Source of the DNA: Escherichia coli
GTDB lineage: Bacteria > Pseudomonadota > Gammaproteobacteria > Enterobacterales > Enterobacteriaceae
Reading direction: 5' to 3' (one strand)
Assembly (NCBI GenBank): GCA_002099625.1
Contig: GCA_002099625.1_4857.1
Length of the DNA: 64,000 nt
Below are positions 9,552 to 63,974 of this stretch, one piece after another (position 1 is the first letter of the stretch; every line of letters starts with the position of its first letter). A model generated the notes under the pieces. That model was not told the DNA's origin and did no database searches. It worked only from the letters and a program-made list of their open reading frames with translations. The translations under genes and the position numbers were made by a program.

Positions 9552-10097
9552 TCATTGAACCATACGCTGCGCGTCGTAAGACGGTGCGAGGTTCACAACA
9601 CGACCATGTAGAGTTTGCTCTGCTTCGTCTAACAGGTCATCGCGTACGAGCGTCTGGCGAATGTAAAGCGTTGCCCGTATCCCCTCAGCGCTGTAAGGCG
9701 CGGTGACCATTTTGGTCTGGTAACCTTCAATCGTCACCGGAACACGCTCGCCATTACGACGAACAAAATGCTCCAGCTTACCGTAATCGTGACTGCAGAC
9801 TTTAGACATGTCAGACAATCCCGCATCGATTAAGTATTTCCAAAGACTGACGATGCCTTCTGAGCAATGTTTGTTAAGTTCACCTTCGACGACAAACTCG
9901 TACCCACCGTACGTTAGAATGTGCGTGCCTGCTGAACGACGGTCACATTCTAAAATGAACACGCCCAGACCAATCATAACCGGACGTGGGATTGTCATGA
10001 CACTGGTACTAAATTGCAGCGTAGTAACCTCATCCCAAAGGGGCGATGATTTGTCGTTGCTTACACTAATAACATCTTTGAGATTGACACGTTTCAT
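9552..10097 (-). CDS. hypothetical protein
   Basis: 181-aa ORF. Confidence 0.6.
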   Translation of the reverse strand: MKRVNLKDVISVSNDKSSPLWDEVTTLQFSTSVMTIPRPVMIGLGVFILECDRRSAGTHILTYGGYEFVVEGELNKHCSEGIVSLWKYLIDAGLSDMSKVCSHDYGKLEHFVRRNGERVPVTIEGYQTKMVTAPYSAEGIRATLYIRQTLVRDDLLDEAEQTLHGRVVNLAPSYDAQRMVQ

Positions 10098-10155
10098 TAT
10101 AAATACTCCTTACGATTAATGGTCGATTACATACGGTTTCAGGCTAACGTAATAT

Positions 10156-10917
10156 TTACGCTGCTGGTTCTTCAGCGGTTTTCACTTCAACTGGTTTCAT
10201 CAACGAGTTCGCACAGTCGAAGATAGCATCCAGGAAACCACGGAACGGCTTCATGGCTTCACGCTGGGCGTTCTGACGTTCTTCTTCAATTGCTTCTTCT
10301 TGCGCCTGAATTTCTTCAGCAGTCAGCTCTGGGTGTTCCGTCATGCTTTCTGCCAGGGTCATCACTTTCGGCTGCGCATTCAGAATCGGAATACGGCGGA
10401 TGACCTTGGTGATATTCCCGAGCTTCATGCCACCCAGCATGGTATCGAACAGCGTACCGAAATCTTGCAGTGGGTCTTCGCTGATTTCCAGTACCGCCGG
10501 AGTCGCAACCAGACCAAAGGCAATGACCAATTCAACGGCAGTGTCAGTGACGTGCGCAGCGAACGGGGTGTCTTCCATCTGCAGGTAATTGTTGCCATTA
10601 TAGGTCACCGGAATGAATTTGATTTCTTCCCCTTTCTTCAGTCGCAGTGTATCGACTGCGGCTTTGTACTGAACTTCGTACAGTTCCGGTTTAACACCGT
10701 CAACGTTATCCAGTGTAAAGAGCAGGTCACCAACCGCCATACGGCGCGGCAGTTTGCGTTTGTTGATTTCGCGCAGCCAGACTTGTAAGCCGGTGAATTG
10801 AATTGGGGACAGTCTAATTTTAAAGCCGTTGGTTGCTTGCAGGATAGCACCGTCGTCTTCGCTACGTTCGATAGAGCCATTAGCCAGAGTAAGCAGATTG
10901 ATAGTTTTCATTTTCAT
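10156..10917 (-). CDS. hypothetical protein, first gene downstream of a conserved promoter-like element
   Basis: 253-aa ORF; acidic C-terminal region; promoter-like element ~45 nt upstream. Confidence 0.65.
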   Translation of the reverse strand: MKMKTINLLTLANGSIERSEDDGAILQATNGFKIRLSPIQFTGLQVWLREINKRKLPRRMAVGDLLFTLDNVDGVKPELYEVQYKAAVDTLRLKKGEEIKFIPVTYNGNNYLQMEDTPFAAHVTDTAVELVIAFGLVATPAVLEISEDPLQDFGTLFDTMLGGMKLGNITKVIRRIPILNAQPKVMTLAESMTEHPELTAEEIQAQEEAIEEERQNAQREAMKPFRGFLDAIFDCANSLMKPVEVKTAEEPAA

Positions 10918-10962
10918 ATTCCTTAAGTAATGGTCAGTTAGTAAAGCAAATCATTGTTTGCT

Positions 10963-10992
10963 CACCTAGGTAATATATATCTGAAAATTATT
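10963..10992 (-). promoter_or_regulatory. conserved promoter-like element (long form), copy 2
   Basis: plus-strand CACCTAGGTAATATATATCTGAAAATTATT; ~45 nt upstream of the minus-strand start at 10917. Confidence 0.5.
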
Positions 10993-11001
10993 GTAATCGG
11001 A

Positions 11002-11045
11002 GACAAAAAAAGAAGAGGTAAATCCCCCACCGAAGTGGGGGATTC
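11002..11045 (-). terminator. intrinsic terminator after gene 11056-12315
   Basis: hairpin AATCCCCCAC-CGAA-GTGGGGGATT preceded on plus by an A-tract. Confidence 0.6.
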
Positions 11046-11055
11046 GCCAGTCTAA

Positions 11056-12315
11056 TTACTTAGACTTTTCATACGCACCGATACCAGCGCTGATGTAGCC
11101 GTTAACGCCGGCGATCAGGTTTTTCTGGCCAGTTGCAACGCAACGTTCGGTCCAGGAGATGTACTGGTTCGCAACGGTGATTGCACGACGCGCAACACGG
11201 ACGTTGGAAGTCAGTTCAGCATTGTCATCGATCTTCACGCCGTCGATACGTTTCAGCAGCGCCTCAATAGCCCGCTCGTACGATTCTTGAGCCTGGTTAT
11301 TTTTGTGGTACGCTTTCACGTTCTCTTCGACTGCTTTACCCAGCTGGTTGAAGAACGCAACCAGAGAAGACAGCGTCTGAGCAGACGGAGTAGAAACAGA
11401 TTTTTCTACGCTGCCTTCAGCATCGATAACGGTGAAGGAAGCTTCCAGGTCATCCCCGTTCACTTTCACGTCAGCTTTACCGATCTGGTTACCCAGCAGT
11501 TGAACTTCGCCCGCTTTGCCTGCAGTGGCTTTGTTAACCGCTGCTGCGAAGCCGCTGTTCAGTTTGCCGCCTTCAACTGCGCTGACCATGCTGGTTGCAG
11601 CTTTGACCACTGCATCCTGCTCGCCGTAGATGCTGCCGATAGTAGACAGAACACCTTTCAGTGCATTGATGTCGTCACCAACAAACTTACCACCGGTGGT
11701 CAGGTTCTTAATGAACCCACCGCTAATGGTGTCTTTCTTCTGCTTGCCCAGGCCACGCAGAGCCGCGTCATATTTCTTAGCGCGCGCCTGAATGGATTTA
11801 CCCTGGTTGCTGAACTTGAGCCAGCGATCTTTGATTTTACGGCCTTGTTCTTTCAGCCAGTCGAAGATACGCTGCAGGAACGCTTTGATGTCGTCCCACA
11901 GTGATTCGCGAGCAACCTGACGGCGTTTACGTGCGCCGTAAGATTCCTGCGCAACGCTTACGCGGTGATCAAATGCCCAACGTTTACGGATAGATTCCTG
12001 CGCAACGTCCAGCTGCTCAGCAGCTTCGTCAGGCATATCTTCTTCCACTTCCATTGGCTCTTCGCCATCTTCGCCTTCACCGTCAGCGGCGGCTTCAGCA
12101 GCATCAACTGCATCCAGCTGTGCATCAGTTTCGTCACCGTCTTCTGCCAGCACGTCTGCTTCTGCGTCCAGCTGGTCGATCGGTTTGGTGTCATGCTCGA
12201 TGTCAGCCAGAGTACCTTCCACGGACTCAGCCGGCAGCTCGATACCATCTGGAACGACAGTGCCTGCGCCTTCGACAGATTCACGAGCGAGTTTACTTTT
12301 TACAAAGTTTGCCAT
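11056..12315 (-). CDS. acidic protein, tandem paralog 1 (possible virion or inner-body type protein)
   Basis: 419 aa; N-terminus MANFVKSKLARESVE and C-terminus G.NGYI.AGIGAYEKSK shared with the 12393-13670 product; internal AQESIRKRWA shared; long D/E-rich N-terminal region. Confidence 0.7.
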   Translation of the reverse strand: MANFVKSKLARESVEGAGTVVPDGIELPAESVEGTLADIEHDTKPIDQLDAEADVLAEDGDETDAQLDAVDAAEAAADGEGEDGEEPMEVEEDMPDEAAEQLDVAQESIRKRWAFDHRVSVAQESYGARKRRQVARESLWDDIKAFLQRIFDWLKEQGRKIKDRWLKFSNQGKSIQARAKKYDAALRGLGKQKKDTISGGFIKNLTTGGKFVGDDINALKGVLSTIGSIYGEQDAVVKAATSMVSAVEGGKLNSGFAAAVNKATAGKAGEVQLLGNQIGKADVKVNGDDLEASFTVIDAEGSVEKSVSTPSAQTLSSLVAFFNQLGKAVEENVKAYHKNNQAQESYERAIEALLKRIDGVKIDDNAELTSNVRVARRAITVANQYISWTERCVATGQKNLIAGVNGYISAGIGAYEKSK

Positions 12316-48249: not shown

Positions 48250-49660
48250 TCCCTAACTTTCATTAGGGCACAGACCATACCTTAGCCATGAGCTTTCGCT
48301 TTTAGGCTCCTCCCCACTTCGGCGCTATTCTAAGCACCTACGAGCATTTCAGCTCCGGTCGTTGAACGTTCCTCTTACGAGGCTTCGCTGCTGATTACCC
48401 ATTGTTAAAACCCTTAGCAGTATTGTTTAGCATAGGTCATCTCATTACTTGTTTCCGACTTTCGTCTCCACATGGGCAAATGAGCTTTAGGGGTTCCCAG
48501 CAATTCAGGGAGATACACATCAGAGGTTTCCCGTCTGATGGGGCAAGGTTATTCTGCTGTTAAATATTGAACTTCAAATTGTTTGTACTTTCCAGTTTGT
48601 GAGACTGCTTTGGCCACAGTGTTTCTTTTCACACCAATCGCGTTTGAAAACTCTTGTAGAGAATTCCAAATGGTTTTGATATTAGTGGTCGTATCAGTCA
48701 CACGCACCATCGATGGTACACGTTTTGGCATTTGTGATTGTGGTCTGGGTTTGCGGAGATCGATCATGTCGGTTATGGCAACATCGATATCCACCATATA
48801 CCACGCCTCATATCCAAACTTAGTCAAATCGACGGTACCGCCGTTGAGGTGAGAATAGATGAGGTGTGGTTTTATACCCACGTATTCGGCTGCTGCCGGT
48901 ACAGACGAGAACAGGAAATATGGTTCCTTACCAACCTTTCTGATGACCAGTCCTTTATTACCTGGTCCTGAGTTCTTGCCAATAGAATTCTTGGTGAGAA
49001 TCCAGTCGTCTGCCGGTAGCTTGACTTCAAACACATCATTTAGCGTGTATTGACGATTAAGTCCACGCGTGATCGAGCTTGAAACCAAGTGCCGATTAAC
49101 GCCGATATACTCAGCTGCCTTAGCCATGCTACGGAACTGAACTATATCGCCGGTCTCGAGATTTCTGACATCGACAATAATGTTGTCAGTTCTTAGACCA
49201 GTATCGAAAGCATGATTAACATTTTCCTTTCGATAACACCACTCAAGGTTTACCACAGATGGATTACTCTTAACACCATCACGATGGTTAACCTCGTCAC
49301 CACATTTATCCAGGAACACAGTCGCAACAATTCGATGTAAATGGGTTTCGTCTTTACAACCGCGCACTCCCAGGTATCCACTTTTGAGAATGAAGACCGG
49401 TAGCGGCATGACCATACCTTTTACTTTACAGTCACCCAATGCATCAACAAAGAGATCACGATAGACTGGGTGTCTGTAATACCCCTTAAAAACATACGAG
49501 GGCTCTAAATCATCGCGTAGTTTCCTACTCAACTTTTCAATAATCACAATTTATTCCCTATTACCAGTCACCGACTAAGAATAAGGAATAGCAGAATAAC
49601 ACTTTTACCGTTAGCCATCTTGATCACACGGTCAGAGATACGCAGCGAACACTGGTTAAC
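48250..49660 (-). mobile_element. putative group I intron with embedded HNH homing endonuclease, interrupting the beta'-N gene (boundaries approximate)
   Basis: conserved beta' sequence is interrupted between ...NPTLVQLSIQ... (exon 1) and ...DFDGDQ... (exon 2); between them an HNH ORF and ~300 nt of hairpin-rich non-coding sequence (48250-48548). Confidence 0.55.
48549..49547 (-). CDS. HNH homing endonuclease with NUMOD-like DNA-binding repeats
   Basis: 332 aa; HNH motif ETHLHRIVATVFLDKCGDEVNHRDGVKSNPSVVNLEW; three repeats of the type AAEYIGVNRHLVSSSITRG / AAEYVGIKPHLIYSHLNGG / FSNAIGVKRNTVAKAVSQTG. Confidence 0.85.
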   Translation of the reverse strand: MIIEKLSRKLRDDLEPSYVFKGYYRHPVYRDLFVDALGDCKVKGMVMPLPVFILKSGYLGVRGCKDETHLHRIVATVFLDKCGDEVNHRDGVKSNPSVVNLEWCYRKENVNHAFDTGLRTDNIIVDVRNLETGDIVQFRSMAKAAEYIGVNRHLVSSSITRGLNRQYTLNDVFEVKLPADDWILTKNSIGKNSGPGNKGLVIRKVGKEPYFLFSSVPAAAEYVGIKPHLIYSHLNGGTVDLTKFGYEAWYMVDIDVAITDMIDLRKPRPQSQMPKRVPSMVRVTDTTTNIKTIWNSLQEFSNAIGVKRNTVAKAVSQTGKYKQFEVQYLTAE

Positions 49661-50974
49661 ATCGGTAACAACTTCATCGATGTACAGCGTTTGAATAGAC
49701 AACTGTACCAGCGTTGGGTTACGTAACGGTATGACCATGATCCCAAGACCGCCTGGGGATTCACGAATCAGTTCTTTAAAGATTTCATCTACAAGCGGGT
49801 CATACTGCATTGCCGCTTTTGCAACGATACGTTCACATTGCCGTGACGAATAACCCCGTCGTAGCAGTTTGTTCTCGATGTGGGTCGACATCAACCCAAC
49901 CATCCAACGCCATGGTGCTTTTAACTTCCAGGCATCGTGTGGTTCTGAGATAGGTGAGATGGTTGCACGACCACCGAACGGGATATGGGTAGAACCCAAT
50001 TTCGCACGATAGTCACCCGGTTTACCTTCCATAGACTCACGACGGAAGTCCATGTGGAAGTATGTTAACTGACGGTTGGCTTTCAAAGCGCGACTAATCA
50101 GAAAACGTGGTTCGATCGCTTTACGCCGCGTATAAAGTAACGCGATATTTTTCACCGCATCGATAGCACCCGTGAACACTGGGTCTACCATGACACCACG
50201 ACGACCTTCCTCAGTAACGATAAGCTTAGAGGAGATTAGCGGTAAGTGTCTTGGGAAGAATGCATGGCGTTGCGTTTCGAATAGCTCCTTCCATTGTAAA
50301 CGTAAGCGTTCACCTTCAGCGGCGTTATGCCGATTAGGTGCGAAGATTTCCTTCCAGGCTTCCGGCGTGGTAAGGATGTTAAAGATACTAACGTGGTTAT
50401 CAACCAGATTGCGCAAGCCACGAACGAAACCGTGTTCTTCCAATACACGTTTCACAGCATGTGCGCGTTTACCGTCTGGTTCTTCTATACGGTAATACGG
50501 GTCAATCATCCACATCATCAAGTCATTACCGCGTTCGATAGTGACCTTGTTACGTTCAAACTTCTTCAACTTGCTATTAAAGAAAGCATTGAACATTGCC
50601 CAGAATCGTGGGTTGACGAAGTTACCCATTTCATCAGGTGCACGTAACCAGACATCGGATTCAATTCGATATTCAGTTACAACATAGCCACACGTCGGAC
50701 ACTTACAACCGAGATTGTAACGATGCGCGATCGGTGCCGGACAATCCAAACTACAAATCGGTGCAGAGTTCAGTTCTTCGTCAACGATTCTGTTCTGTAC
50801 CATGCGATCGATAAGTTCAGCAACTTCGATCGCATCCCCGTTAACGGCGACATCGTTAATAATAGTGGGTGGTTTAATACCTTTGGCAGCAGCTTCTATT
50901 TGCAAATCGGACAAATAGTTATCCTGACTAACCAACCGGCCGGATATTCCGTAGAATTTTGGTACCTTTCTCAC
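49568..50974 (-). CDS. RNA polymerase beta'-N, exon 1 (3' end of the ORF runs into the intron)
   Basis: N-terminal zinc finger CSLDCPAPIAHRYNLGCKCPTCGY; IPLRNPTLVQLSIQ resembles bacterial NRAPTLHRLGIQ; the last ~30 codons of the track ORF are probably intron sequence read in frame. Confidence 0.75.
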   Translation of the reverse strand: MRKVPKFYGISGRLVSQDNYLSDLQIEAAAKGIKPPTIINDVAVNGDAIEVAELIDRMVQNRIVDEELNSAPICSLDCPAPIAHRYNLGCKCPTCGYVVTEYRIESDVWLRAPDEMGNFVNPRFWAMFNAFFNSKLKKFERNKVTIERGNDLMMWMIDPYYRIEEPDGKRAHAVKRVLEEHGFVRGLRNLVDNHVSIFNILTTPEAWKEIFAPNRHNAAEGERLRLQWKELFETQRHAFFPRHLPLISSKLIVTEEGRRGVMVDPVFTGAIDAVKNIALLYTRRKAIEPRFLISRALKANRQLTYFHMDFRRESMEGKPGDYRAKLGSTHIPFGGRATISPISEPHDAWKLKAPWRWMVGLMSTHIENKLLRRGYSSRQCERIVAKAAMQYDPLVDEIFKELIRESPGGLGIMVIPLRNPTLVQLSIQTLYIDEVVTDVNQCSLRISDRVIKMANGKSVILLFLILSR

Positions 50975-51056: not shown

Positions 51057-52910
51057 TTACAGTTTGAAGTTGCTCAGAGACACGCCCAGACCGAAATCGG
51101 AACCGCTTGCAGACAGGCCGTTGCCAGACAGCGTGAAGTCTTCCCCACCGTTGTTGAAGAACAGAGAGGTCGCCATCGTGTTGTAGGCATTTACACCAGT
51201 CATAGACCAGGTGCAGTTGTTACGGACGAAGTCCAGCAGGCATTTACCGAAGATCGGGTTGATAGCCATATCCAGAGATTCACCGGTAGCTTGCGGTGCT
51301 TTGGATGCGAACAGAGAAGCGGCCAGTTTCAGCATGTAGATACGCTGTTGACGCTCGTTCAGTTCACGGTGGCTGTAGGACTGTGCGTTCAGGTAGCTAT
51401 AGACGTCGTTCGCGTTATCACCCAGTTTGGTAACAACGGAAATCAGGTCCATATCCTGGAAGCTACGTTTCTGTGCAGTACCGGTGTAAACACCGGAAAC
51501 AGTCGGTACGGCTGCTTTCACGATGTGGCTGCAATGGATGGTACCATTGAAGGCATCGCCCAGCTGTGCTTTCAGTGCAGAAGCAAATACTGCAGTGAAG
51601 CTGGTCGCTGCAACAACTTCGCCGTTCTGATCACGCGGGGACATGGAATTCAGAATAGCGAGCAGCTGTTTCAGAGAGTTGTCGTAACCGACCGCAATTT
51701 CAGACAGCATAGTAGACAGACCACCCAGACCGTTACCGGCACGATGGCTAACTACCAGTGCTGCTTCACGCGGTGCGAACATATCCAGGCAACCTTCGAT
51801 AGCTTCACGGCTACCGTCGATTTTGGATACATCAGGACGAGCGTCAGCACCCCAGGACAGGTATTCTGCCACACGGGAGAACTTGCGATCTTGTTTGTTC
51901 AGACGTTTCACAAACAGGTCACGCCAGCCACCGATTGCCGCGATTTCTGCAAATGCAGCCAGCAGCAGCAGTTGACGTTCATACGGTGCCATTGCACCTT
52001 CAGTTTGAGAATCGACCAGACTTACTACGATTTCAGCCTGCAGCTGTTTCAGGTCGTAGACGCCGTTAACGACAGGCTTCTGACCGGTGAAACGCATGTT
52101 GACGAAACCAGTACCGGATACACGCGGATACACCTGTACCTGATTGGTGTCCAGCAGAGTCGGAGTGGCGTCGGATACGTTGCTTGGGCTGTGCTCAACG
52201 GTGATTGCGAAATCAGCACGTTGTGCGTGGCCGTTAGCATCCACAACCGCACCATCTTCCAGCGGCATTACTGCAGCCTGATAACGGTCATGCTTACGCA
52301 GGTTCAGCGTACCCAGGTAGCCTGCGATACGACCGAAGATGCCCATCATCATCTGACCCATCAGAGTACGTGCCCACTCAGCATCCAGAACTTTACCCAG
52401 GTCTGGTACGGAGTTGATGATCATGAAGTTCGCATTGGTCAGACCATGCGCTTCCATGATGTTTTTCTGTACTACTGCCAGCACGTCTTTGTTGAACAGT
52501 TCAGTGATGGTGTAGTAGTCTTCCTGGCCGTTGTTGGTAGTTTCTTTCAGACGCAGAGACTGACCGCGTTCAAAGAAGATAATACCGTACAGCCAGTGGC
52601 CCTGCCATTGGCCTGCGACATACGCCGCGGAACCCATTTCGTTACCCACGCCGGCGATGGTGCCCCAGCGGAACGCGTTGAGGTATTCGTTGCTTTTCTT
52701 CAGCTCGTCCAGGAGGTTGACGAAGTGCATTGCATAGGTGCTGATGTTGCGGATGCCAAATGCGTTATCGAATTGGCTGACAGTAGAAGTACCCGGCACA
52801 GCAGTTTGCACTTTTACAGTCTCGTTGCCCAGACCGCCCAGTGGTGCGGTGTCTTGAGTCTGAGTGTTGTTCTGCTGAGCGTTGTTGTTAGAGTCAACGA
52901 TTTTTACCAT
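51057..52910 (-). CDS. hypothetical protein; candidate phage-nucleus shell protein (chimallin-like), speculative
   Basis: 617 aa; low-complexity N- and C-termini; own promoter-like elements and terminator; lies immediately upstream of the beta'-N gene, the arrangement I recall for phiKZ gp54-gp55; no sequence-level verification possible here. Confidence 0.3.
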   Translation of the reverse strand: MVKIVDSNNNAQQNNTQTQDTAPLGGLGNETVKVQTAVPGTSTVSQFDNAFGIRNISTYAMHFVNLLDELKKSNEYLNAFRWGTIAGVGNEMGSAAYVAGQWQGHWLYGIIFFERGQSLRLKETTNNGQEDYYTITELFNKDVLAVVQKNIMEAHGLTNANFMIINSVPDLGKVLDAEWARTLMGQMMMGIFGRIAGYLGTLNLRKHDRYQAAVMPLEDGAVVDANGHAQRADFAITVEHSPSNVSDATPTLLDTNQVQVYPRVSGTGFVNMRFTGQKPVVNGVYDLKQLQAEIVVSLVDSQTEGAMAPYERQLLLLAAFAEIAAIGGWRDLFVKRLNKQDRKFSRVAEYLSWGADARPDVSKIDGSREAIEGCLDMFAPREAALVVSHRAGNGLGGLSTMLSEIAVGYDNSLKQLLAILNSMSPRDQNGEVVAATSFTAVFASALKAQLGDAFNGTIHCSHIVKAAVPTVSGVYTGTAQKRSFQDMDLISVVTKLGDNANDVYSYLNAQSYSHRELNERQQRIYMLKLAASLFASKAPQATGESLDMAINPIFGKCLLDFVRNNCTWSMTGVNAYNTMATSLFFNNGGEDFTLSGNGLSASGSDFGLGVSLSNFKL

Positions 52911-52955: not shown

Positions 52956-52972
52956 GAGATAATATCTGCCTA
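52956..52972 (-). promoter_or_regulatory. conserved promoter-like element (variant) upstream of the 617-aa gene
   Basis: AGATAATATCTGCCTAT ~45 nt upstream of the start at 52910. Confidence 0.45.
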
Positions 52973-53049
52973 TAATTTCATGGAATGCAAGTACGCCGTC
53001 GCTTACTTACAAGGCACATAGTCCAGACATTTCTCAGGAACTGTCACAT

Positions 53050-53064
53050 AGATAATATCAATCT
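53050..53064 (-). promoter_or_regulatory. conserved promoter-like element (variant), second copy in the same intergenic region
   Basis: AGATAATATCAATCT; ~140 nt upstream of 52910 and ~50 nt upstream of the plus-strand gene at 53117. Confidence 0.35.
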
Positions 53065-53116
53065 GAGATATTTTTGACTGTGACTGACTTCCTATGTGGA
53101 ATCTAAGGAGTCTGCC

Positions 53117-54184
53117 ATGTTCAGCCAAGCCGAGTTAAACCAAGTGGCCATAAAGGGTCACAGCACGGACCCCTCCGCTATAACATTAGCGGCTCACGTA
53201 AAAAACAACAGCCAGCGTATACGCAACTACTACGAACAGCTTAATCGCAGTGCTGGTAATGGCCATTTGTTGCAACAGGTGTTGTCTGCCATCGGCTATG
53301 CCGGTGAACCAGAGTACGAAGACATCGAATGGGCTTGCCGTCGCAAGCTTGTTCAGATTGGTAACGCCTTACGCTTGACGTCTGTTGGTGAGTACGGTCA
53401 AATCTTTAATAGCAAGTTTATCCAGGGCCAAGATGAGGTAATCTCTCTCGTAGCCCGCCCAGTAAATCCAGACCTTTCGTTCCGCGACTACACCCCCGCC
53501 CGTTACCTCTACCATGAGTATACCAACCTCAATTGGAAGTTCGGTGACGGACGGCCCCGAGGTGTTACGGTGATCGAAATCAACCTGGTTGCTTTGCTTT
53601 GGCAATATGTCAAAGGTCAGCAACACTACAGTCGCGGTACCGAACCTATTGCCACACCTGTGTATCTCCAACGACATGTGATCTCTCGCATGTTGCCGAG
53701 CTACATGGATATCGCCTTTGTAAATATACATCGTGCGATAGCCTTCGGGAAAGAGATTGAACCGGATGAAACATTACGTGTCATTCCTGTTCCACCGCTT
53801 CAAGCTTTAGCTGTGAAGCACGCAAAAGGCATCCGTAGTAAACTACTGGCTGCCAACCCGTTACCGGGACAAGTCTTAAACAACATCCCATTGTTCTTCC
53901 AACACCCTGATGAAGAAGGCCACACAGCACTGGAACTGATTGTCTTTCGAGAACCAGGTCAAACACTGCAGAACACCTGGCACCAGAACATGGTGAACTG
54001 GTACTGGGCACTGTTTTGTCTTCAATACAACCAGGGGAATATGGAAAAACATAAACGTACGATGTTGGTTGATTTGGCGCGTTATGTGGACTCTAAAGTC
54101 CTCACACGTTTGACCAAATCCTTCTATAACTTTATCCAACGGGATTTGATTATCCCGTTGACGACAGAGCTAGAAGAAAAATAA
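53117..54184 (+). CDS. hypothetical protein
   Basis: track ORF 53096-54184 starts at GTG; ATG at 53117 (MFSQAELN...) has an AAGGAG SD; followed by a strong terminator. Confidence 0.65.
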   Translation: MFSQAELNQVAIKGHSTDPSAITLAAHVKNNSQRIRNYYEQLNRSAGNGHLLQQVLSAIGYAGEPEYEDIEWACRRKLVQIGNALRLTSVGEYGQIFNSKFIQGQDEVISLVARPVNPDLSFRDYTPARYLYHEYTNLNWKFGDGRPRGVTVIEINLVALLWQYVKGQQHYSRGTEPIATPVYLQRHVISRMLPSYMDIAFVNIHRAIAFGKEIEPDETLRVIPVPPLQALAVKHAKGIRSKLLAANPLPGQVLNNIPLFFQHPDEEGHTALELIVFREPGQTLQNTWHQNMVNWYWALFCLQYNQGNMEKHKRTMLVDLARYVDSKVLTRLTKSFYNFIQRDLIIPLTTELEEK

Positions 54185-54574: not shown

Positions 54575-56854
54575 TTATTCTTCCGCCTCTTCCCCATCTT
54601 CTTCCTCTCCATCACGTTCAGATTTCTTAACGTACTCACCGCTACCTAATTCTTCCTTGACCGAGTCTACAGATTCGCCGTAGTAATCCGAAAGCAGACG
54701 AGTTCTATTCTTGTCCATCATGAACACACCCAGACATTCCAGGATGTGATAGTAAGGTTCTACTGTGGAGAATGCGCTTCGGCGTGTGTCTGCAGCATCA
54801 ATCAGCTCCGGCGGAATACCGAAGTTTTCCACCAAGAACTCTGGCAGTATCAGAGTACGATAGGTACGATAGTTGTTTTCTTCGAACCACCGTGTTGCAG
54901 TGGTCTTAATCATCGGGTCTTTAATGTTTTCCAGCCACTCTTTAACGGCTGTTTTGTTCTCCAGGTTTACCGGAAGCTTCACGGCGTCATAAGGCGGTTC
55001 GTCCAGGTAGCCGTACTTCGGTCCAAAGATGGCGTTGTACATGCGGTGGTAGTGGTAGCTCTTTTCATCATCTTCAGAGTACGCACTACGGTCTTTGACG
55101 TTGGTTGTTTTCAGGTAGCCTGCTTTACCAGCACGAATAGAGTCCACCACAACGTGCTCAATTGCAGCAACCTTTTCCAGCAGAGGCAGAATCTTAATCT
55201 TATCGCCGCGCGCTACAATCTCACAGAGTTCTTTAATCGTGCGTTTGAACTCTTTCATGACCACAGGCGGTATGTTTGACGTACGTAGAGACACACCTTT
55301 AACTTCTAACTCAGGGTCGGACTTCAATTGTCCTTCCTGACCAGTGATGATGGAGAAGTAGTGTTTTGCTTTTGTGGTTAACGCAAAGGAGTCGAACTTA
55401 AATTCGTTCTTCATTGCGTACAAGAACAAACGCTCTTTCGCCACGCCAATGTTCGCCGACATGCTCGCCATCAGATGACGTAAGTGCTGGGTTGCAATAT
55501 AAATCATCGCATCCGATACGCGCGTAGCTTCACGACCGTAATGTTGACCGGTATACCACTGTGCCCACCACTGTGCAGTCATCATCGTGGAGTCGGTATC
55601 AGATACCACACCGACACGACGAACCACGTCAGGCATCCTGGCAATGTTAATCGGCAGGTTTTTGGTAGTCAGGATATTGCGAATCAAGCACGCGTACTTA
55701 CCGATGGTTTTCTGCAGATACACAGCTGAGCGAATCAGCTCTTTGTATTTTTCCTGCTTATCCCACGGTTCCGCTTTGTTCGTGTTTTCGTCTTTGAGTT
55801 TAACGTCAGAGAACGACTTACCTAACGGCACGATATCAGTACGGAACTGCGAGATAATGATCTGCATGTCACCGTCGATAGAGCGCTCAGCAGCATCCCA
55901 ATCGGTGATCTCGTCTTCCATCTCCTCGGCAATCAGCGCACCGATAAACCCACGCATGAATTCATCGTTGTATTTCGCCAGGTGGTAGAAGTCACCCATG
56001 TAGACAAACGCTGCACGTACCAGCGGGCTACAATTACCGACGTAGTGACGAATGAACTCCAGCCCTTCGTCGTTACGGAAGTAAAACTCTGCAGAGTACA
56101 TAACCACTTCCATAACCTCGTCCACTGTTGGGTAGTGGAGGTTATAGAGTTCCATACACTTCTTGAACTCCGCAAAGTTAGTCAGTGTACCAATAGACAG
56201 TAAGTGGTCGATAACACGGGACGGCGTGTCGTAGTGACGATTACCGCCCAGTAGACGTTCGTTGCCCGCGTTACCGAACGATGTAGCCGTACGGCAGGTT
56301 GACGTCAATACAGAGTGCGAAGACTGGTTAAAGATTACCGTGTACGGTGATGAGAATGCACCCGACATCCCGTTGTTCAACGTCTTAACAGCGTTCTGTT
56401 CGTTCTTTTTGTTAATACGCAGAACTTCATTACCCGCAGCACCTGCTGCGTACATCTCTTTCTTAACAACCGCACGCTTACGCACGTTCTCTGCGGTAAA
56501 TTCAGCAAGCTTAGAGCGCTTGACGTGCTCAGGCAGATAAAAGGTCAGCGACGGTGCAGAAATAATCTGCTTATCAATCACTGTACGGAACAGTTTATCT
56601 ACCGTGGTGTATTTTTCTTCGCGATCGCCGGTCTTTTGATTGCGCACCCACATCTTACACACGGGGAATTCGTGTACTAACTCACCACCAGGTTGGAACA
56701 TTTCTTCGACCTGCTGTCGACAGAACTCCAAAGAATATTTCCCGTTGGTGACGGTATGAATGTAGAGCGCCAGTTGTTCGTAGTACGCATCGATAACGTC
56801 AATGTCGCGATGATACTCGTCTTGACTAAGACGAAATGGTGAATTGTAGTCCAC
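54575..56854 (-). CDS. family-B DNA polymerase, polymerase (palm/thumb) part (split gene)
   Basis: 759 aa; VGVVSDTDSTMM (motif C, DTDS) and KTLNNGMSGAFSS (motif B-like K...N.G.SG); no exonuclease motifs in this ORF; spacing between motifs is atypical. Confidence 0.5.
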   Translation of the reverse strand: MDYNSPFRLSQDEYHRDIDVIDAYYEQLALYIHTVTNGKYSLEFCRQQVEEMFQPGGELVHEFPVCKMWVRNQKTGDREEKYTTVDKLFRTVIDKQIISAPSLTFYLPEHVKRSKLAEFTAENVRKRAVVKKEMYAAGAAGNEVLRINKKNEQNAVKTLNNGMSGAFSSPYTVIFNQSSHSVLTSTCRTATSFGNAGNERLLGGNRHYDTPSRVIDHLLSIGTLTNFAEFKKCMELYNLHYPTVDEVMEVVMYSAEFYFRNDEGLEFIRHYVGNCSPLVRAAFVYMGDFYHLAKYNDEFMRGFIGALIAEEMEDEITDWDAAERSIDGDMQIIISQFRTDIVPLGKSFSDVKLKDENTNKAEPWDKQEKYKELIRSAVYLQKTIGKYACLIRNILTTKNLPINIARMPDVVRRVGVVSDTDSTMMTAQWWAQWYTGQHYGREATRVSDAMIYIATQHLRHLMASMSANIGVAKERLFLYAMKNEFKFDSFALTTKAKHYFSIITGQEGQLKSDPELEVKGVSLRTSNIPPVVMKEFKRTIKELCEIVARGDKIKILPLLEKVAAIEHVVVDSIRAGKAGYLKTTNVKDRSAYSEDDEKSYHYHRMYNAIFGPKYGYLDEPPYDAVKLPVNLENKTAVKEWLENIKDPMIKTTATRWFEENNYRTYRTLILPEFLVENFGIPPELIDAADTRRSAFSTVEPYYHILECLGVFMMDKNRTRLLSDYYGESVDSVKEELGSGEYVKKSERDGEEEDGEEAEE

Positions 56855-56901
56855 GTCTGGCCCCTTGGTTTTTTACTCAGCTATAAGACTTGCGGGATAC
56901 G

Positions 56902-56942
56902 TGAAAAAAGAAAAAAAAATAACCCACTCCGAAGAGTGGGCT
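56902..56942 (-). terminator. intrinsic terminator after gene 56947-57357
   Basis: hairpin CCCACTC-CGAA-GAGTGGG preceded on plus by CGTGAAAAAAGAAAAAAAAA. Confidence 0.6.
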
Positions 56943-56946: not shown

Positions 56947-57357
56947 TTAACCGGCAATACTCTCAACGATTTCAAAATCGACGTCATTGAAACCATTGGC
57001 AGCCAGGGCACGTTTAAGGTCGTCAATCTCCTGTTTGTTATCCAGGGTGACGGTGAAGCGCACCTTCGTGTTTTCGATAATCTGAACATCACGAATCCAG
57101 GCATCGGCAGCGACTTTTGGTTTGCCGTCAACACCTTTGAAAATCAGATACGTGTATTTGTTCACATTATCTTCTGGCTGAGAAACAATGGAAGAGTAGA
57201 TATTCTTCTGCTCCGCCATCACATCCATATAACTTTTGGCCATCTCGTAGCCAACGCCGGTTGCCAGAATAATTACACGCGTCTCTTGCCCTTTCAAAGG
57301 GGTGTCGTAAACAATGTTAACTTTTTGCCCAGCGACCAGTGTGCGTAAATCGAACAT
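56947..57357 (-). CDS. hypothetical small protein
   Basis: 136-aa ORF, last gene of a translationally coupled array. Confidence 0.55.
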   Translation of the reverse strand: MFDLRTLVAGQKVNIVYDTPLKGQETRVIILATGVGYEMAKSYMDVMAEQKNIYSSIVSQPEDNVNKYTYLIFKGVDGKPKVAADAWIRDVQIIENTKVRFTVTLDNKQEIDDLKRALAANGFNDVDFEIVESIAG

Positions 57358-57956
57358 TATTCCTCCTCAGGAACATCAATAAGCAGCCTCATATCCAAAG
57401 CATTGGTCACTGGTGTTTTCGGGAAGTCCACCTTGAGAACCAACGTACGGATAGCGCCATTATGCGCCTCTAAGAACATCTTCACCGGCTCAACATAATG
57501 CGCCATAACTGCCTCCGTTACGGCGGTCGCCATTAGATCCAACGTGTAGTGCTTGAGCGTGGCCCAGTGTGAGCTGTCTTGCTCTTTGTACATCAACGCT
57601 AAATCTAACAATGGTGTCAGCCCGTTAAAATGTGACTCGGTGCTGGCTTCCATTGCAACATTAAACTTCCACCGACGGTACTCGTCAGTCAGTAACGTAA
57701 AGAAGTCGTGCAAGAACGTAAGGTCGGTGCGAGGCAACATGCAACGAAACTCGTACGTATAGCTAGTCAGCGTTTCACGTATAAGTTCGTGTATCTCGTC
57801 CTGGTCCAATTCTTTTACGGGTATCTCCACGGTGATACGCGGCAGGCGGACTACGGTGTCAACCACCAAATCCAAAAACCGCATACCGTCCGGAAGATAC
57901 CCCACGACCCCCAAGTCCACATTAATCAAGTGGTTGGCGATCACCTTGTAGATCAT
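57357..57956 (-). CDS. hypothetical protein
   Basis: 199-aa ORF; 1-nt start-stop overlap with the downstream gene. Confidence 0.55.
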   Translation of the reverse strand: MIYKVIANHLINVDLGVVGYLPDGMRFLDLVVDTVVRLPRITVEIPVKELDQDEIHELIRETLTSYTYEFRCMLPRTDLTFLHDFFTLLTDEYRRWKFNVAMEASTESHFNGLTPLLDLALMYKEQDSSHWATLKHYTLDLMATAVTEAVMAHYVEPVKMFLEAHNGAIRTLVLKVDFPKTPVTNALDMRLLIDVPEEE

Positions 57957-57965
57957 TCGTACTCC

Positions 57966-58397
57966 TTAACATTCAACACAGATGAGTGCGTTGCCAATTT
58001 CATTCATAAGGAGTGAAACCTTTGTCTTTTTTGCTCCGTCTTCTGGAGTCAAGCCAGCCATGCCCCACACACGTTCTATCACGGAAAGGATTTCATAGAA
58101 CCGAACATCATCCTTAATCCCACTGCTCATGCTGTAGCAGTTTAGAGGCAGTACCTTTTCAGTACCCCACATCCCGCGCAACTGTTCCAGTATCAACGCA
58201 GGGTCTGGGGGAATAAAAGTAAGAAAGTTCTTACCCTTACCTAGCCCATTAACAATAGAACGAACCGTTAATTCGGCGTAACTGGCCAGAAACAAATAAG
58301 CGACAGCGGGCTCGATCTCGCTAGTATCAGCAATCTCGGCCCGTGCCAACAACGACTCATATTTGAAGACTTCGCCTATGGTCATGTACAGTTTCAT
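57966..58397 (-). CDS. hypothetical protein
   Basis: 143-aa ORF. Confidence 0.55.
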   Translation of the reverse strand: MKLYMTIGEVFKYESLLARAEIADTSEIEPAVAYLFLASYAELTVRSIVNGLGKGKNFLTFIPPDPALILEQLRGMWGTEKVLPLNCYSMSSGIKDDVRFYEILSVIERVWGMAGLTPEDGAKKTKVSLLMNEIGNALICVEC

Positions 58398-58882
58398 TCG
58401 CAGATTAACACCACATCGTTAAAACTATCACCTACATACGTTTGATATCGACCCGGATACAGCGACTCTATCAATCCAGCGAAACCAGTTAAGTTTGTTA
58501 ACTCCTCGACCAACAAACTTACCGCAGCGCCGAAGGCAGCTTGATGTTGTTCGGGCGAACCTTGTGCTGCCAGAAACGTCGTATCGACAGACGTTTCTTT
58601 AGCGAACTGGTCAACGGACAGACCATCGGTCACCAACTCCCAATTGCCCAGAGGTTCAAGCGTGTCTTCCTGTAACAAATCAACCATTGTCGATGGGTCA
58701 CGAGTTTTCACACCGATGATATACGCAAACGCAAAACGTTGATAAAAATCACGTATCTGCGTTTCATCAATCTCCAGGTTACTGGCTTCCAATACACGCA
58801 ATGCTGCTTCGCGAACGTGCTCGTAAAACCGAGTCGCGCTATATTGGTTCGCAATATCCGCCACATCAAACAGAACACTCAT
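58394..58882 (-). CDS. hypothetical protein
   Basis: 162-aa ORF; ATGA-type overlap. Confidence 0.55.
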   Translation of the reverse strand: MSVLFDVADIANQYSATRFYEHVREAALRVLEASNLEIDETQIRDFYQRFAFAYIIGVKTRDPSTMVDLLQEDTLEPLGNWELVTDGLSVDQFAKETSVDTTFLAAQGSPEQHQAAFGAAVSLLVEELTNLTGFAGLIESLYPGRYQTYVGDSFNDVVLICE

Positions 58883-59388
58883 ACACGGCCTCCGAGATTA
58901 CCGATAAGCAAATCGATAACAGGCAGAAGCTGTGGGGTAATGCGCTCGTACGCTTCCTGGCTGGCAAACTGTGGGAATTTATCACCACCATTATAGTCTA
59001 ATAAGAATTCGACATCCGCCGGATTGCGCGTTGTGTATTGTGCACCGACCCAACGACCGTAGTGAGTAAACCAATAAGGAGACTGCGATACGGCGGTCAT
59101 ATACGCACGACCGATGTTTTGAATTGCGGTGCCGTAGGTGATTACTTGCTCATTTTCCAACACAACACCATGGGCGTTCAGTGTACGAGAAACAAACCCA
59201 AAGGTATTGTTCATCATAAACTTTAACTCACTACCAATGGTTCCACGTTCCACGAAGCTCATGGCGGTATTGATTATCGAGTTCAAATCGTCATTCACTT
59301 CGCGGAGCACATCGTTTGGCGAAAACTCCGTTAACGGCCCAGCCAATAACTGATAGCCGGGGATATAAAAATGAGATCGCTCAATCAT
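58879..59388 (-). CDS. hypothetical protein
   Basis: 169-aa ORF; ATGA-type overlap. Confidence 0.55.
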   Translation of the reverse strand: MIERSHFYIPGYQLLAGPLTEFSPNDVLREVNDDLNSIINTAMSFVERGTIGSELKFMMNNTFGFVSRTLNAHGVVLENEQVITYGTAIQNIGRAYMTAVSQSPYWFTHYGRWVGAQYTTRNPADVEFLLDYNGGDKFPQFASQEAYERITPQLLPVIDLLIGNLGGRV

Positions 59389-59788
59389 TGTAAGTAACCC
59401 CTGTAGTTAACATTTTCCAGACACCGTCTCCTACATGCCAGAGGAGAAAGTCGGATTGTGGTAAAAAAGTCATGTCCTCGTCGATTGCTTGCCAGATGCA
59501 ATCGGTGTCCCGTATCAACAACTCAAATCGACAAAGAGCCCAGTATTTTGCCGACGTGGTTGGGGTAATGATTGGGTTATCGTGAACATACTCCATAAAG
59601 AACTGACGTATCATGCTATCGATAACGCCATATTTTTTCCGCAGAACATGCAACCGAACAATTTGCTCGATATAGTCGTCAAGCTCTACCGCAGCATCCT
59701 GGTAATCGATGCCGAGATTCTCTTTGACGAGTGCGGTGAGTCGGCAAGTCAATCGCACGAACTCAGTATAAACCGTCATCATAGACAT
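59381..59788 (-). CDS. hypothetical protein
   Basis: 135-aa ORF. Confidence 0.55.
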   Translation of the reverse strand: MSMMTVYTEFVRLTCRLTALVKENLGIDYQDAAVELDDYIEQIVRLHVLRKKYGVIDSMIRQFFMEYVHDNPIITPTTSAKYWALCRFELLIRDTDCIWQAIDEDMTFLPQSDFLLWHVGDGVWKMLTTGVTYND

Positions 59789-60071
59789 CTGTTACCTTAC
59801 GTGGAATGAAACGGAGAATTCTGTCTGCTTGATTATAATGATACCGATACCCTTTTGGAGGAATGCCCATTTCCTCACAGATAGCACGATGAACGTGTGA
59901 CGCGATGGTGTGGATTTCCCGCGAATGACTTCTGGGACGATAACACCTAACAATCAGTGAGACTGTTTCTGTGTCCCACGCACCGTGTTCTGTAAATGTC
60001 GGAATCATGTATTCGAGCATACAGAGAATGATATGCTTCAACCCCGTGTTAACATCATACATGCTGAACAT
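59763..60071 (-). CDS. hypothetical protein
   Basis: track ORF 59763-60230; probable start at internal ATG (MFSMYDV...) 13 nt after the upstream stop. Confidence 0.45.
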   Translation of the reverse strand: MFSMYDVNTGLKHIILCMLEYMIPTFTEHGAWDTETVSLIVRCYRPRSHSREIHTIASHVHRAICEEMGIPPKGYRYHYNQADRILRFIPRKVTDVYDDGLY

Positions 60072-60084
60072 GATGTCGCTGGGG

Positions 60085-60648
60085 TCATTCAATATCCTGA
60101 CGTATGCCGTCGAGGCAATGTGATCGATCAGTACCAGACGGACGATATCGTTTGTTTGGGAAGCATTGGCGGTAGTGGATGAATCTGATGTCTTCTCCAA
60201 TTTGTAACTCCAGAGATTGCACCTGCCCACGACGGGTTATGTGTGGTTCCAGTTTAATCGTCGCATAACGATTAAACGGGTGTTTGGCGGCTTTCACAGC
60301 ATTCTCCACAAGTGCATGGATACTGTCCAGGAAACTGTTGTAACAGTCTTCGAATGCCAATCCGATAAGATATTCGGTAGAACGTAAAATCGCTACGGTC
60401 TCCTTCGTCTTATTAACCGGAGTACCCAAACCGCCACTGGAAACGTGTGTACGTTCCACAGGAACTGTTTTCGGTGGAAGTATGATCTGGTCAGCCACCA
60501 ACATCATCGTGAGATTAAAAGCGTCAGTATAAGGTTCCAGCAAAGGTTCCATACGTGCATTAGGCATTTCCGGAACGGAGTAAAAGATATCTTCGAGCGC
60601 AGTGTGTAACAGTTGTACAGTTAACATCTCGCGTTCTTTTTGGCTCAT
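60085..60648 (-). CDS. hypothetical protein
   Basis: track ORF 60085-60846; probable start at internal ATG (MSQKEREML...) that overlaps the TGA of the upstream gene (ATGA). Confidence 0.5.
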   Translation of the reverse strand: MSQKEREMLTVQLLHTALEDIFYSVPEMPNARMEPLLEPYTDAFNLTMMLVADQIILPPKTVPVERTHVSSGGLGTPVNKTKETVAILRSTEYLIGLAFEDCYNSFLDSIHALVENAVKAAKHPFNRYATIKLEPHITRRGQVQSLELQIGEDIRFIHYRQCFPNKRYRPSGTDRSHCLDGIRQDIE

Positions 60649-60965
60649 CCGCAGAGCGGTAGCGTACTGGGAAGCATCGACAGGCCCCCAGAAGCTAGAA
60701 TGAACCGCAGCTGGTTCGAGGTATATTCTGACCACGTTTGCACAACTCCATTTTTGTAATGAAAGGGATAGCGATGGTTTCGGCCCAACGCCGAAATAAC
60801 AAACCACGCTTCCGTGCCAAAATAACTTTCGGCAATGCGTATCCACTCACGTGGAAACTCATGCGTGCCGGGATAAATGACTTCTTGTATCGCGCACAGT
60901 AACATGTCCGCAGGCACAATCAGTTCATTTGTCCCTGGAGAGAAATTAAAGAACATGCGCGTCAT
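60645..60965 (-). CDS. hypothetical small protein, first gene of the array
   Basis: 106-aa ORF ~30 nt downstream of a promoter-like element. Confidence 0.55.
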   Translation of the reverse strand: MTRMFFNFSPGTNELIVPADMLLCAIQEVIYPGTHEFPREWIRIAESYFGTEAWFVISALGRNHRYPFHYKNGVVQTWSEYTSNQLRFILASGGLSMLPSTLPLCG

Positions 60966-60995
60966 CGAGAAATGCTCCTTAAGGATAATTCACGA

Positions 60996-61009
60996 AGATA
61001 ATATCTATG
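60996..61009 (-). promoter_or_regulatory. conserved promoter-like element (variant)
   Basis: AGATAATATCTATG ~30 nt upstream of the minus-strand start at 60965. Confidence 0.45.
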
Positions 61010-61128
61010 CAAAATTTCTTCGAGTATGGTGCGCACATAAAGGTCGTAAAACGTATTTTAATGTCAGGTAATGCTATCCCATTACCCGATGGTATGAGTT
61101 GTCCTACGAGCTTCATAGGAGCCTTAGA

Positions 61129-61941
61129 ATGAATGTTATCGACTACTGCCTGCGTAAAATCAGACAGCATATCCCTGCCCCGATTCTACAGGCGGCTTTT
61201 GTTCCAGAAAACCTCAAGTTACTGGGAATTGCAAGCTCTGTAGATAACGAAATTCAACAACGCGTTATTCGTGAAATTCTGGTCCCTGAAATCTCCAGAA
61301 TGGGGCAGTATCAAGAAGTAGATTTGCAAGGTGTTCCTTGGGATAACGACACGCAAGATTATTTCAGTCGCGTGTATTATCTCGACGACATCAAAACAGG
61401 TGGTCGCCCAATTCTGGACGCCCATATCTCTGTAACACCTGTTGCCGGACAGGCGTACACCATGCCACCCGCGGGTTCGTATCTGGACGGTGCAACCTCT
61501 GGCGTACTGGCGTCCACTCAACAAGTGGTTGATAGTCAATCCGCGATGCCGCGTATCGCCTCACCAGAAGTTGAAGTGCTCGGTCCGAATACCATTCGTA
61601 TCAAAGACCCAGGCATGTTCGTTTACTCTACCAAACTCGTGGTGAAGTACGAACTGTCCCAGGAGATGAACGAAATCAAACCAGCATTCTATCCGGTTGT
61701 AGGTGAGCTGGCAGTCATGGCTGTTAAGCAATATATCTACAACACCATGATCTTCGACATGGATTCCGGTAAACTGGAAAATGGTATGGAGTTCGGTGCC
61801 TTCAGAAACGTTATTGAAGGTTACTCGGACGCCGGTCAAATGTTCGAAGACACCTTGCCGAAAATGCAACGTTGCCTGGTCCACAACGACAACATCGGAA
61901 ACCGTTGGAACTACATGAACGGTGGACGCTTCAAGTCGTAA
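61129..61941 (+). CDS. hypothetical protein
   Basis: track ORF 61099-61941; ATG at 61129 (MNVIDYC...) has AGGAG SD at 7-nt spacing; followed by a terminator. Confidence 0.65.
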   Translation: MNVIDYCLRKIRQHIPAPILQAAFVPENLKLLGIASSVDNEIQQRVIREILVPEISRMGQYQEVDLQGVPWDNDTQDYFSRVYYLDDIKTGGRPILDAHISVTPVAGQAYTMPPAGSYLDGATSGVLASTQQVVDSQSAMPRIASPEVEVLGPNTIRIKDPGMFVYSTKLVVKYELSQEMNEIKPAFYPVVGELAVMAVKQYIYNTMIFDMDSGKLENGMEFGAFRNVIEGYSDAGQMFEDTLPKMQRCLVHNDNIGNRWNYMNGGRFKS

Positions 61942-63958: not shown

Positions 63959-63974
63959 TAGATAATATCTATCT
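63959..63974 (-). promoter_or_regulatory. conserved promoter-like element (short form)
   Basis: TAGATAATATCTATCT ~58 nt upstream of the minus-strand start at 63900. Confidence 0.5.

Follow-up and report, generated by a model that had tools for sequence, protein, structure and literature searches.

What do eight small genes that match no named protein family contribute to a nucleus-forming jumbo phage? This question is raised by an array of nine small open reading frames (ORFs) on the minus strand, from position 60965 down to 56947, of a 64,000-nucleotide stretch deposited as Escherichia coli (assembly GCA_002099625.1, contig GCA_002099625.1_4857.1), hereafter called the window. The original prediction had seen here nine translationally coupled genes between one promoter-like element and a terminator, and had taken this for the typical layout of an early host-takeover or anti-defence module. 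Our analysis indicates that the "early" label is probably right, whereas takeover or anti-defence is the less likely reading. We tentatively prefer the view that eight of the genes (A to H) may be accessory factors of the phage-nucleus and replication programme and the lineage's counterpart of phiKZ gp43 to gp48; the ninth (I) encodes a baseplate protein.

The 4.1-kb array region is 99.6% identical to that of Salmonella phage SPLA1a and 97.3% identical to that of SPN3US, and we therefore assign the window to Seoulvirus, a phiKZ-related nucleus-forming jumbo phage; on these alignments, the phage that carries the array is of the SPN3US type (Chimalliviridae). The region is fully covered in 24 of the 36 matching phage records. 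Its nine ORFs are SPN3US gp9 to gp17 (SPN3US coordinates 7435-11453), with the DNA polymerase gene gp18 directly downstream. They are annotated as nine coding sequences in SPN3US and its relatives and are already in GenBank as nine hypothetical proteins. The parts of the array are the following.

60990-61013, minus strand: predicted early-type promoter motif, core TAGATATTATC at 60997-61007, about 32 nucleotides upstream of the ATG of gene A
60976-60981, minus strand: Shine-Dalgarno sequence AAGGAG of gene A, read from the sequence and kept in the alignment
60645-60965, minus strand: gene A (gp9), 106 amino acids, non-virion; in 22 of 22 lineage loci, with collinear matches in L098 and L099 (see below)
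60085-60648, minus strand: gene B (gp10), 187 amino acids; ATGA overlap with A
59763-60071 as annotated, up to 60230 if an upstream start is used, minus strand: gene C (gp11), 102 amino acids from the annotated ATG
59381-59788, minus strand: gene D (gp12), 135 amino acids; 26-nucleotide overlap with C
58879-59388, minus strand: gene E (gp13), 169 amino acids; best conserved of the eight unknown genes
58394-58882, minus strand: gene F (gp14), 162 amino acids, isoelectric point (pI) 4.2; ATGA overlap with E
57966-58397, minus strand: gene G (gp15), 143 amino acids; ATGA overlap with F
57357-57956, minus strand: gene H (gp16), 199 amino acids; own AAGGAG 9 nucleotides after the stop codon of G
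56947-57357, minus strand: gene I (gp17), 136 amino acids; TAATG overlap with H
56903-56942, minus strand: intrinsic terminator, stem AGCCCACT/AGTGGGTT, loop CTTCGG, followed by a long T-run

The nine ORFs are closely spaced and form a single unit, with a conserved AT-rich motif at its head and a conserved intrinsic terminator at its end, and in this respect the array is as originally described. As read from the sequence, the junctions are ATGA overlaps at A/B, E/F and F/G and a TAATG overlap at H/I; the C/D and D/E overlaps measure 26 and 8 nucleotides (the latter ATGATTGA), and the 9-nucleotide gap between G and H contains AAGGAG. All nine genes showed ratios of nonsynonymous to synonymous substitution rates (dN/dS) of 0.06-0.5 wherever dS was unsaturated, and this purifying selection indicates that the ORFs are real coding genes. 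Because overlapping stop and start codons would couple translation, the products may be made in fixed ratios. The B/C junction is less simple. From the annotated ATG (60071) there is a gap of 13 nucleotides, whereas in relatives gene C starts 35-83 nucleotides inside B. Since the frame upstream of this ATG encodes the relatives' conserved N-terminal segment (LIDHIASTAYVRILND; LIDHIASTAYLRILND), the true start of gene C probably lies further upstream; TTG 60200 (with GGAG 7 nucleotides before it) and GTG 60230 are the candidates, and both would make C overlap B. At the relatives' own start position the extension has no ATG or GTG, the ATG of SPAsTU being CTG in the window, and databases carry the start of gene C in three versions (99, 102 and 124 amino acids). 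All-against-all blastp and hhalign comparisons revealed no paralogy among the nine products. Extra members of the gene G cluster, considered as paralogues of G, are most likely short spurious same-strand ORFs upstream of G, in the F region. In SPN3US-type phages, gene F is shorter: about 22 residues of an acidic, variable central segment, present in SPAsTU and in the relatives from Erwinia and Cronobacter, are missing.

Is this unit transcribed early? The promoter-like element that had been placed at about 60996 is borne out as a conserved motif with the extended form aga-TAGATATTATC-t-N3-gtga, and a scan for sigma-70-type promoters near 60996 gave no match. In an intergenic alignment of 8 phages from 5 genera, the core A.A.ATATTAT within CATAGATATTATCTTCGTGA was invariant. 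With at most one mismatch allowed, the window contains 9 copies of TAGATATTATC where 0.59 would be expected, and most of them stand before the starts of minus-strand genes or operons. On this strand the motif is found 30-60 nucleotides before the first gene of several runs (38304, 43463, 61007 and 63971), and two tandem copies (52958-52968 and 53051-53061, about 93 nucleotides apart) lie upstream of a 617-amino-acid ORF. Direct searches of this ORF against chimallin by BLASTP (phiKZ gp54), Pfam (E<=0.01) and PDB sequences gave no match. An iterated hidden Markov model (HMM) search over the syntenic large ORFs of 66 loci linked it to phiKZ gp54 in three rounds; after a fourth it also reached the proteins annotated as shell in Simmy50 and PhiEaH1, and for this reason we identify it as a homologue of the nuclear-shell protein ChmA. 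The motif also precedes the first array gene in three more distant lineages, represented by the loci L034, L098 and L099, the latter two being metagenomic phage contigs found through distant relatives of gene E, and it precedes ChmA in L098 and L099.

These properties can be set against those of phiKZ, where AGAT.TATATTAC is common to the upstream regions of gp31, gp36, gp53 and gp54 and a further copy stands before an unannotated ORF heading the gp43 array. Each jumbo phage that encodes RNA polymerases has its own AT-rich motif of about 10 nucleotides at about -10 of the early virion-RNA-polymerase promoters (reviewed in PMC7598289), and a differential RNA sequencing study reports that the primary start of PHIKZ054 carries the early motif (PMC8244752). 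Like the phiKZ early promoters, the window motif has a conserved AT-rich core of about 10-11 nucleotides, lies 30-40 nucleotides ahead of the first start codon, is repeated in front of several operons (that of ChmA among them), and shares the core ATATTA with AGAT.TATATTAC; unlike them, TAGATATTATC is specific to its lineage. Since the motif is found before the shell gene and is similar to the early motif of phiKZ, early transcription of the array is likely. The motif would then be the lineage's early promoter, from which the injected virion RNA polymerase would transcribe the array, along with the nuclear-shell gene, as infection begins.

Some further features of the motif were observed. The tandem copies before the ChmA homologue recall the primary and secondary starts reported for phiKZ gp54. 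A variant, AGATATATATTACC, almost identical to the phiKZ early motif, occurs at 2464-2474 and 10969-10979 (minus strand) before two other minus-strand runs and may be a second flavour of early promoter. The motif is also nearly palindromic (GATATTATC / GATAATATC) and scores on both strands at 53049-53061 and 63959-63971. Because the plus-strand copy at 53049 lies 37 nucleotides before the plus-strand gene 53096-54184 (gp21), the region at 53049 could be a bidirectional promoter.

At the other end of the unit, the terminator expected at about 56902 was recovered by a terminator scan as AGCCCACTCTTCGGAGTGGGTT followed by a T-run, with a hairpin of 9 base pairs at 56942-56921. Five genera retain the hairpin through compensatory changes in the stem: the stems of Machina, Wellington and Phobos differ yet still pair, as read from the alignment without a formal covariation statistic. 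Between terminator and polymerase gene, TTTTTTCACGT-N12-TTATAG (56881-56906, minus strand) is conserved in five genera, and a looser copy lies upstream of ChmA (53178-53203, minus strand). This element might be a second, perhaps middle, promoter class; its count in the window is not above chance (2 found, 0.46 expected). In the same interval, two or three extra small genes stand between the gp17 homologue and the polymerase in the Derbicusvirus phages Phobos and CR5 (L009, 5623-6976; L010, 5594-6523), and L034 has a gene of 120 amino acids there.

The claim that none of the nine products has a recognisable motif fails at the last gene. Gene I matches Pfam PF20287 over the full model length (120.9 bits with a cut-off of 25; E=3.2e-35). 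The name of this family, "SH3 fold domain associated with phage DNA polymerases" (SH3DP), was taken from gene neighbourhood, and Iyer et al. asked whether its members are polymerase subunits (PMC7824862). A PF20287-family gene indeed lies upstream of the polymerase in 83 of 84 loci. Virion data point elsewhere. Purified SPN3US virions yielded 21, 19 and 21 spectra of gp17 (15.3 kDa), and tailless particles yielded none (PMC5105663 Table S4). Table S1 lists phiKZ ORF049 as structural, mass spectrometry detected 201phi2-1 gp81, and in the 2026 phiKZ structural atlas twelve dimers of gp49 form the hexagonal ring HR1 of the baseplate (PMC13250141). The family profile, which contains gp49 itself, matches PDB 9xqs_M ("PHIKZ049") and, independently, a second virion entry, 11lx_V/36za ("SH3 fold domain-containing protein"; E=2e-26); with the gene I product alone, phmmer found nothing among the structure chains. 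Gene I thus resembles phiKZ gp49 in its full-length alignment, its Pfam match and the tail-dependent presence of its orthologue gp17 in virions, but the two are only 18% identical, and the "handshake" beta-sheet ring of dimers is described for phiKZ. From the family match, the HR1 ring and the tail-dependent detection of gp17 we conclude that gene I encodes a baseplate hexagonal-ring protein of the phiKZ gp49 family, and that the Pfam name is misleading, since a member of the family is a baseplate component. Virion incorporation, which the original prediction had named, in combination with purely late expression, as a finding that would speak against it, is therefore what is seen for gene I.

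The other eight genes are of a different kind. Searches of Pfam and NCBIfam with A to H gave no match, and PHROGs assigns each only to a small family of unknown function. Their products are mostly acidic (pI 4.2-7.05) and soluble: there are no transmembrane segments, and no hydrophobic segment exceeds 1.4 in a Kyte-Doolittle profile with a 19-residue window. Moreover, gp9 to gp16 are absent from the SPN3US virion mass-spectrometry table in which gp8, gp17 and gp21 are present (PMC5105663 Table S4). A tblastn search with the concatenated products found the complete array in unchanged order in 54 records of phages belonging to Seoulvirus, Erskinevirus, Machinavirus, Wellingtonvirus and Derbicusvirus, at identities as low as about 29%. 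When 84 loci with the polymerase and its upstream flank were searched with iterated HMMs, each of A to H was present in exactly the same 22, in the same order, and nowhere else; the phages of this lineage infect Salmonella, E. coli, Proteus, Erwinia and Cronobacter. Relative to CR5 the polymerase is 70% identical and A to H are 17-35% identical, gene D being the fastest diverging (17%). The eight genes thus diverge several-fold faster than the neighbouring polymerase, and under purifying selection. Relatives are few: in the deepest searches, which covered 5.8 billion proteins, H had only about 20 clusters and E had 38, and a set of 1.84 billion representative proteins contained only 19 relatives of gene E.

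The array reaches beyond these 22 loci. In L098 and L099, whose polymerases are 57% and 62% identical to that of the window, a DUF7484 gene (minus strand) is followed by ten small genes, SH3DP, the divergent DNA polymerase, a reverse-strand gene and then, in L098, chimallin. The HMMs of A, B, C, E and H match genes 1, 2, 3, 6 and 9 of these arrays; that of gene B matches the second array gene at E ~1e-22 and gives a weak match to the second array gene of L034. D, F and G were undetectable by HMM in L098 and L099, though genes of the same size hold their places. Synteny in the 22 loci and in L098/L099 despite the divergence indicates an old, collinear and very fast-evolving module. Because content and order are constant across lineages, the array behaves as a set of core genes and not as a variable accessory island, and the case of D, F and G implies that missing sequence matches between chimallivirus clades cannot be taken to mean missing orthologues.

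Structure prediction, which the original prediction had proposed for each product, was run for two of them, gene E (gp13) and gene H (gp16), and yielded confident folds without informative matches. The AlphaFold2 model of E (pLDDT, the predicted local distance difference test score, 88.6; pTM, the predicted template modelling score, 0.86) starts with a single N-terminal strand, continues with four helices and two further strands, and ends in a long C-terminal helix. In secondary-structure order E and H are loosely alike, but neither model retrieved the other's orthologues. A search of BFVD with the E model returned its orthologues and an unrelated-looking protein of 145 amino acids, A0A1S6L237 (E=1.2e-3; template modelling (TM) scores 0.63/0.72). 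The sub-threshold matches were rich in chimallivirus proteins, with 201phi2-1 gp79 and a 287-amino-acid Phabio protein at ranks 5 and 6, at E values of about 0.3 and TM scores of 0.15-0.3 that prove nothing. The identity of 201phi2-1 gp79 as UniRef100_B3FK54, the Imp2 homologue, was confirmed. A0A1S6L237 probably corresponds to pVa21_202 of Vibrio phage pVa-21, a gene of the same 145-amino-acid length three genes upstream of the SH3DP gene (accession unconfirmed); it had also been considered as the product of Seoulvirus gene C, which was rejected because the SEGD1 annotation gives 99 amino acids. By hhalign, the E profile aligned with the pVa21_202 family at 82% probability (E=1e-5, 90 columns), with the common motifs DDLN..(I/L)N, NT..Y and W(F)T, while the other seven array profiles stayed below 1% against the same family. 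This link suggests that at least one array gene is older than the divergence of very distant chimalliviruses, and it is a first hint that any of these genes is so old. Used as a bridge to other clusters or to phiKZ-type arrays, the pVa-21 homologue led to nothing.

How, then, might A to H act? The block is fixed within the replication and nucleus neighbourhood, which makes gp9 to gp16 reasonable candidates for lineage-specific nuclear import or accessory machinery. They lie just upstream of a gp49-family gene and of the family-B DNA polymerase (PolB), as do the import factors Imp2 and Imp4 in phiKZ, where import of Nlp1 depends on orf47 (Imp2), which also enters the nucleus, and import of host TopA depends on orf48 (Imp4) (bioRxiv 10.1101/2024.03.27.586873). 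The products would probably be adaptors or partners that bind phage or host proteins, some of them cargo-specific like Imp2 and Imp4, and their fast divergence would reflect co-evolving protein-protein surfaces. Several observations weigh against this reading. Positional equivalence is not homology. Only some of the phiKZ array genes are import factors, and gp44-46 are dispensable: transposon insertions were tolerated there and absent from gp43, gp47, gp48, gp49 and gp50 (PMC12676376). Early transcription is inferred from a motif, and a late structural gene is odd as the last coupled cistron of a purely early unit. Neither hmmsearch nor hhalign gave anything significant for A to H against the genes and gene clusters of phiKZ and 201phi2-1, and against the clustered array families of the sampled phiKZ-type loci the best hhalign probability was 13% (1% for gene E against the Imp2 cluster). 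At the level of structure, the H model matched no non-orthologous viral protein in BFVD, and the E model reached the Imp2 homologue 201phi2-1 gp79 only at E=0.27 and TM 0.15-0.21. We therefore hold the nuclear-accessory role as a candidate explanation, short of an even chance.

The reading closest to the original prediction is that A to H are early effectors of host takeover or anti-defence that neutralise host proteins. It would account for an early-type promoter, for small and mostly acidic proteins (such as F, pI 4.2) without family matches, and for quick divergence as in an arms race. Anti-defence islands, however, normally gain and lose genes, whereas these eight keep a constant order across the lineage and beyond, in five host genera; a search for variable content found all 22 of 22 lineage loci, and L098 and L099, collinear. 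The dN/dS values of 0.06-0.5, with no sign of positive selection in whole-gene averages, also argue against this reading, as do the setting of the block among core replication and nucleus genes and the import factors in the equivalent position of phiKZ. No similarity of A to H to known anti-defence or host-modifying proteins was found in Pfam, NCBIfam or PHROGs or among the folds of E and H. In addition, it is largely the shell that protects nucleus-forming phages from DNA-targeting defences (PMC12908238). Early expression is thus the plausible part of the original prediction, and we consider an effector role rather unlikely, about a one-in-four matter in our judgement.

Two further explanations take their cue from the genes that flank or end the unit. 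A to H could be accessory subunits or loaders of the divergent PolB replisome, imported into the nucleus to supply the clamp, single-strand-binding or primase-associated functions that the annotation of these phages lacks: a small-gene array lies immediately upstream of the divergent polymerase in every clade examined, phiKZ Imp2 is itself imported, and Group 1 jumbo phages are without a recognised sliding clamp (PMC7824862). Yet a conserved terminator and a separate upstream motif stand between the array and the polymerase gene, the proteins are acidic and not basic, and the E and H models have no clamp, single-strand-binding or loader match at a meaningful score. Replisome parts also rarely diverge beyond recognition while the polymerase stays 57-62% identical, and SH3DP, once tied to the polymerase by the same neighbourhood argument, is a baseplate protein; we regard this explanation as improbable. 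The presence of that baseplate gene in the unit, its translational coupling to H via TAATG and the absence of A to H from mature virions would instead suit non-virion assembly chaperones for the baseplate or tail, co-expressed with gp17. This idea appears very improbable to us, given the early-type promoter in common with ChmA, the position of the remaining tail and baseplate genes in other parts of the genome (by gene number in Table S4) and the phiKZ situation, in which the neighbours are import factors and gp49 lies 34 nucleotides apart from gp48; that one small ring protein should have eight chaperones is also implausible.

The genes around the array in the window are the following.

61129-61941, plus strand: DUF7484 gene (Pfam), divergent, upstream of the array
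54575-56854, minus strand: divergent family-B DNA polymerase (SPN3US gp18), 759 amino acids; Pfam PF20286, E=4e-284; a separate unit beyond the terminator
53096-54184, plus strand: gp21, head protein gene
51057-52910, minus strand: ChmA (nuclear-shell) homologue, SPN3US gp22, the 617-amino-acid ORF; from the iterated HMM search
49568-50974: gp23, non-virion RNA polymerase beta subunit gene, 468-amino-acid ORF; name from Thomas 2016 Table S1

Immediately 3' of the 468-amino-acid ORF lies an HNH/NUMOD1 homing-endonuclease ORF (48549-49547, minus strand), which parallels phiKZ gp56 after gp55. SPN3US homologues of Imp3 (gp24, corresponding to ORF059) and of Imp6/ChmC (gp29, corresponding to ORF067) are found a few genes beyond the array (Table S1). 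No PhuZ tubulin homologue was found within the 64-kb window. Concerning the database records, the gene H cluster P0001 has 126 members labelled Salmonella enterica, yet these lie on contigs of about 241 kb and are thus whole phage genomes inside bacterial assemblies. In several records of the SPFM series (LR535901-LR535917), the match to the region is broken into 5-40 pieces of low protein identity, and the protein clusters that come from them are truncated (P0006-P0010, P0054-P0058), which suggests that the SPFM assemblies are error-rich.

How does the array compare with known systems? In every clade examined the same layout recurs: an oppositely oriented gp42-like virion gene (then PhuZ, in the clades that have it), an array of six to ten small same-strand genes, SH3DP, PolB, a gp52-like virion gene, ChmA and the non-virion RNA polymerase beta subunit. 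In phiKZ, Agricanvirus, PCH45, FBKp24, PhiEaH1 and RisingSun, PhuZ lies between the gp42-like gene and the small-gene array. In phiKZ the slot of our array holds orfX, gp43, 44, 44.1, 45, 46, gp47 (Imp2), gp48 (Imp4) and gp49. The likeness between the two is considerable: both follow a divergent gp42/DUF7484 gene and precede PolB, the gp52-like gene, ChmA and the RNA polymerase beta subunit, and both consist of same-strand small genes with an early-type motif at the head and a gp49-family gene at the end. They differ in that in phiKZ PhuZ and gp40 to gp41.3 separate gp42 from the array (other clades have PhuZ directly in that place), terminators occur inside the array and the genes are more loosely spaced (the 34-nucleotide gap between gp49 and gp48 contains an inverted repeat), and in that the eight genes of the window have no detectable sequence or profile similarity to gp43 to gp48, nor H any fold similarity. 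Import function is shown in the phiKZ slot only for gp47 and gp48, and Imp2 and Imp4 were reported to be conserved only among Pseudomonas phages (bioRxiv 10.1101/2024.03.27.586873). Across the array genes of phiKZ, 201phi2-1, Agricanvirus, PCH45, FBKp24, PhiEaH1, RisingSun, L034 and L035, searches with hmmsearch, iterated HMMs, hhalign and profiles enlarged with L098/L099 gave nothing significant for A to H except weak hints of B and E in L034, and HMMs of the other clades' array families (gp43, Imp2, PhuZ and others) had no matches in the window.

A bolder form of the preferred nuclear-accessory reading is that A to H are true, sequence-unrecognisable orthologues of phiKZ gp43 to gp48, and that an early import-adaptor or nuclear-accessory operon is ancestral and universal in Chimalliviridae. 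Its members would change too quickly for anything but synteny and fold to be preserved, and if this reading were true, Imp2- and Imp4-type factors would be present in all nucleus-forming phages; we think it doubtful, with perhaps one chance in five. Amber-mutant genetics already exist for SPN3US. Finally, clusters of small early genes are common in phages, and to that extent the finding is mostly ordinary: as in T4-type host-takeover clusters, short ORFs without assigned function overlap one another and follow an early-type promoter. T4-type early small-gene clusters vary in gene content between relatives, whereas in this array content and order are invariant, and throughout a large branch of the nucleus-forming phages it keeps its fixed, collinear place among the replication and nucleus genes.

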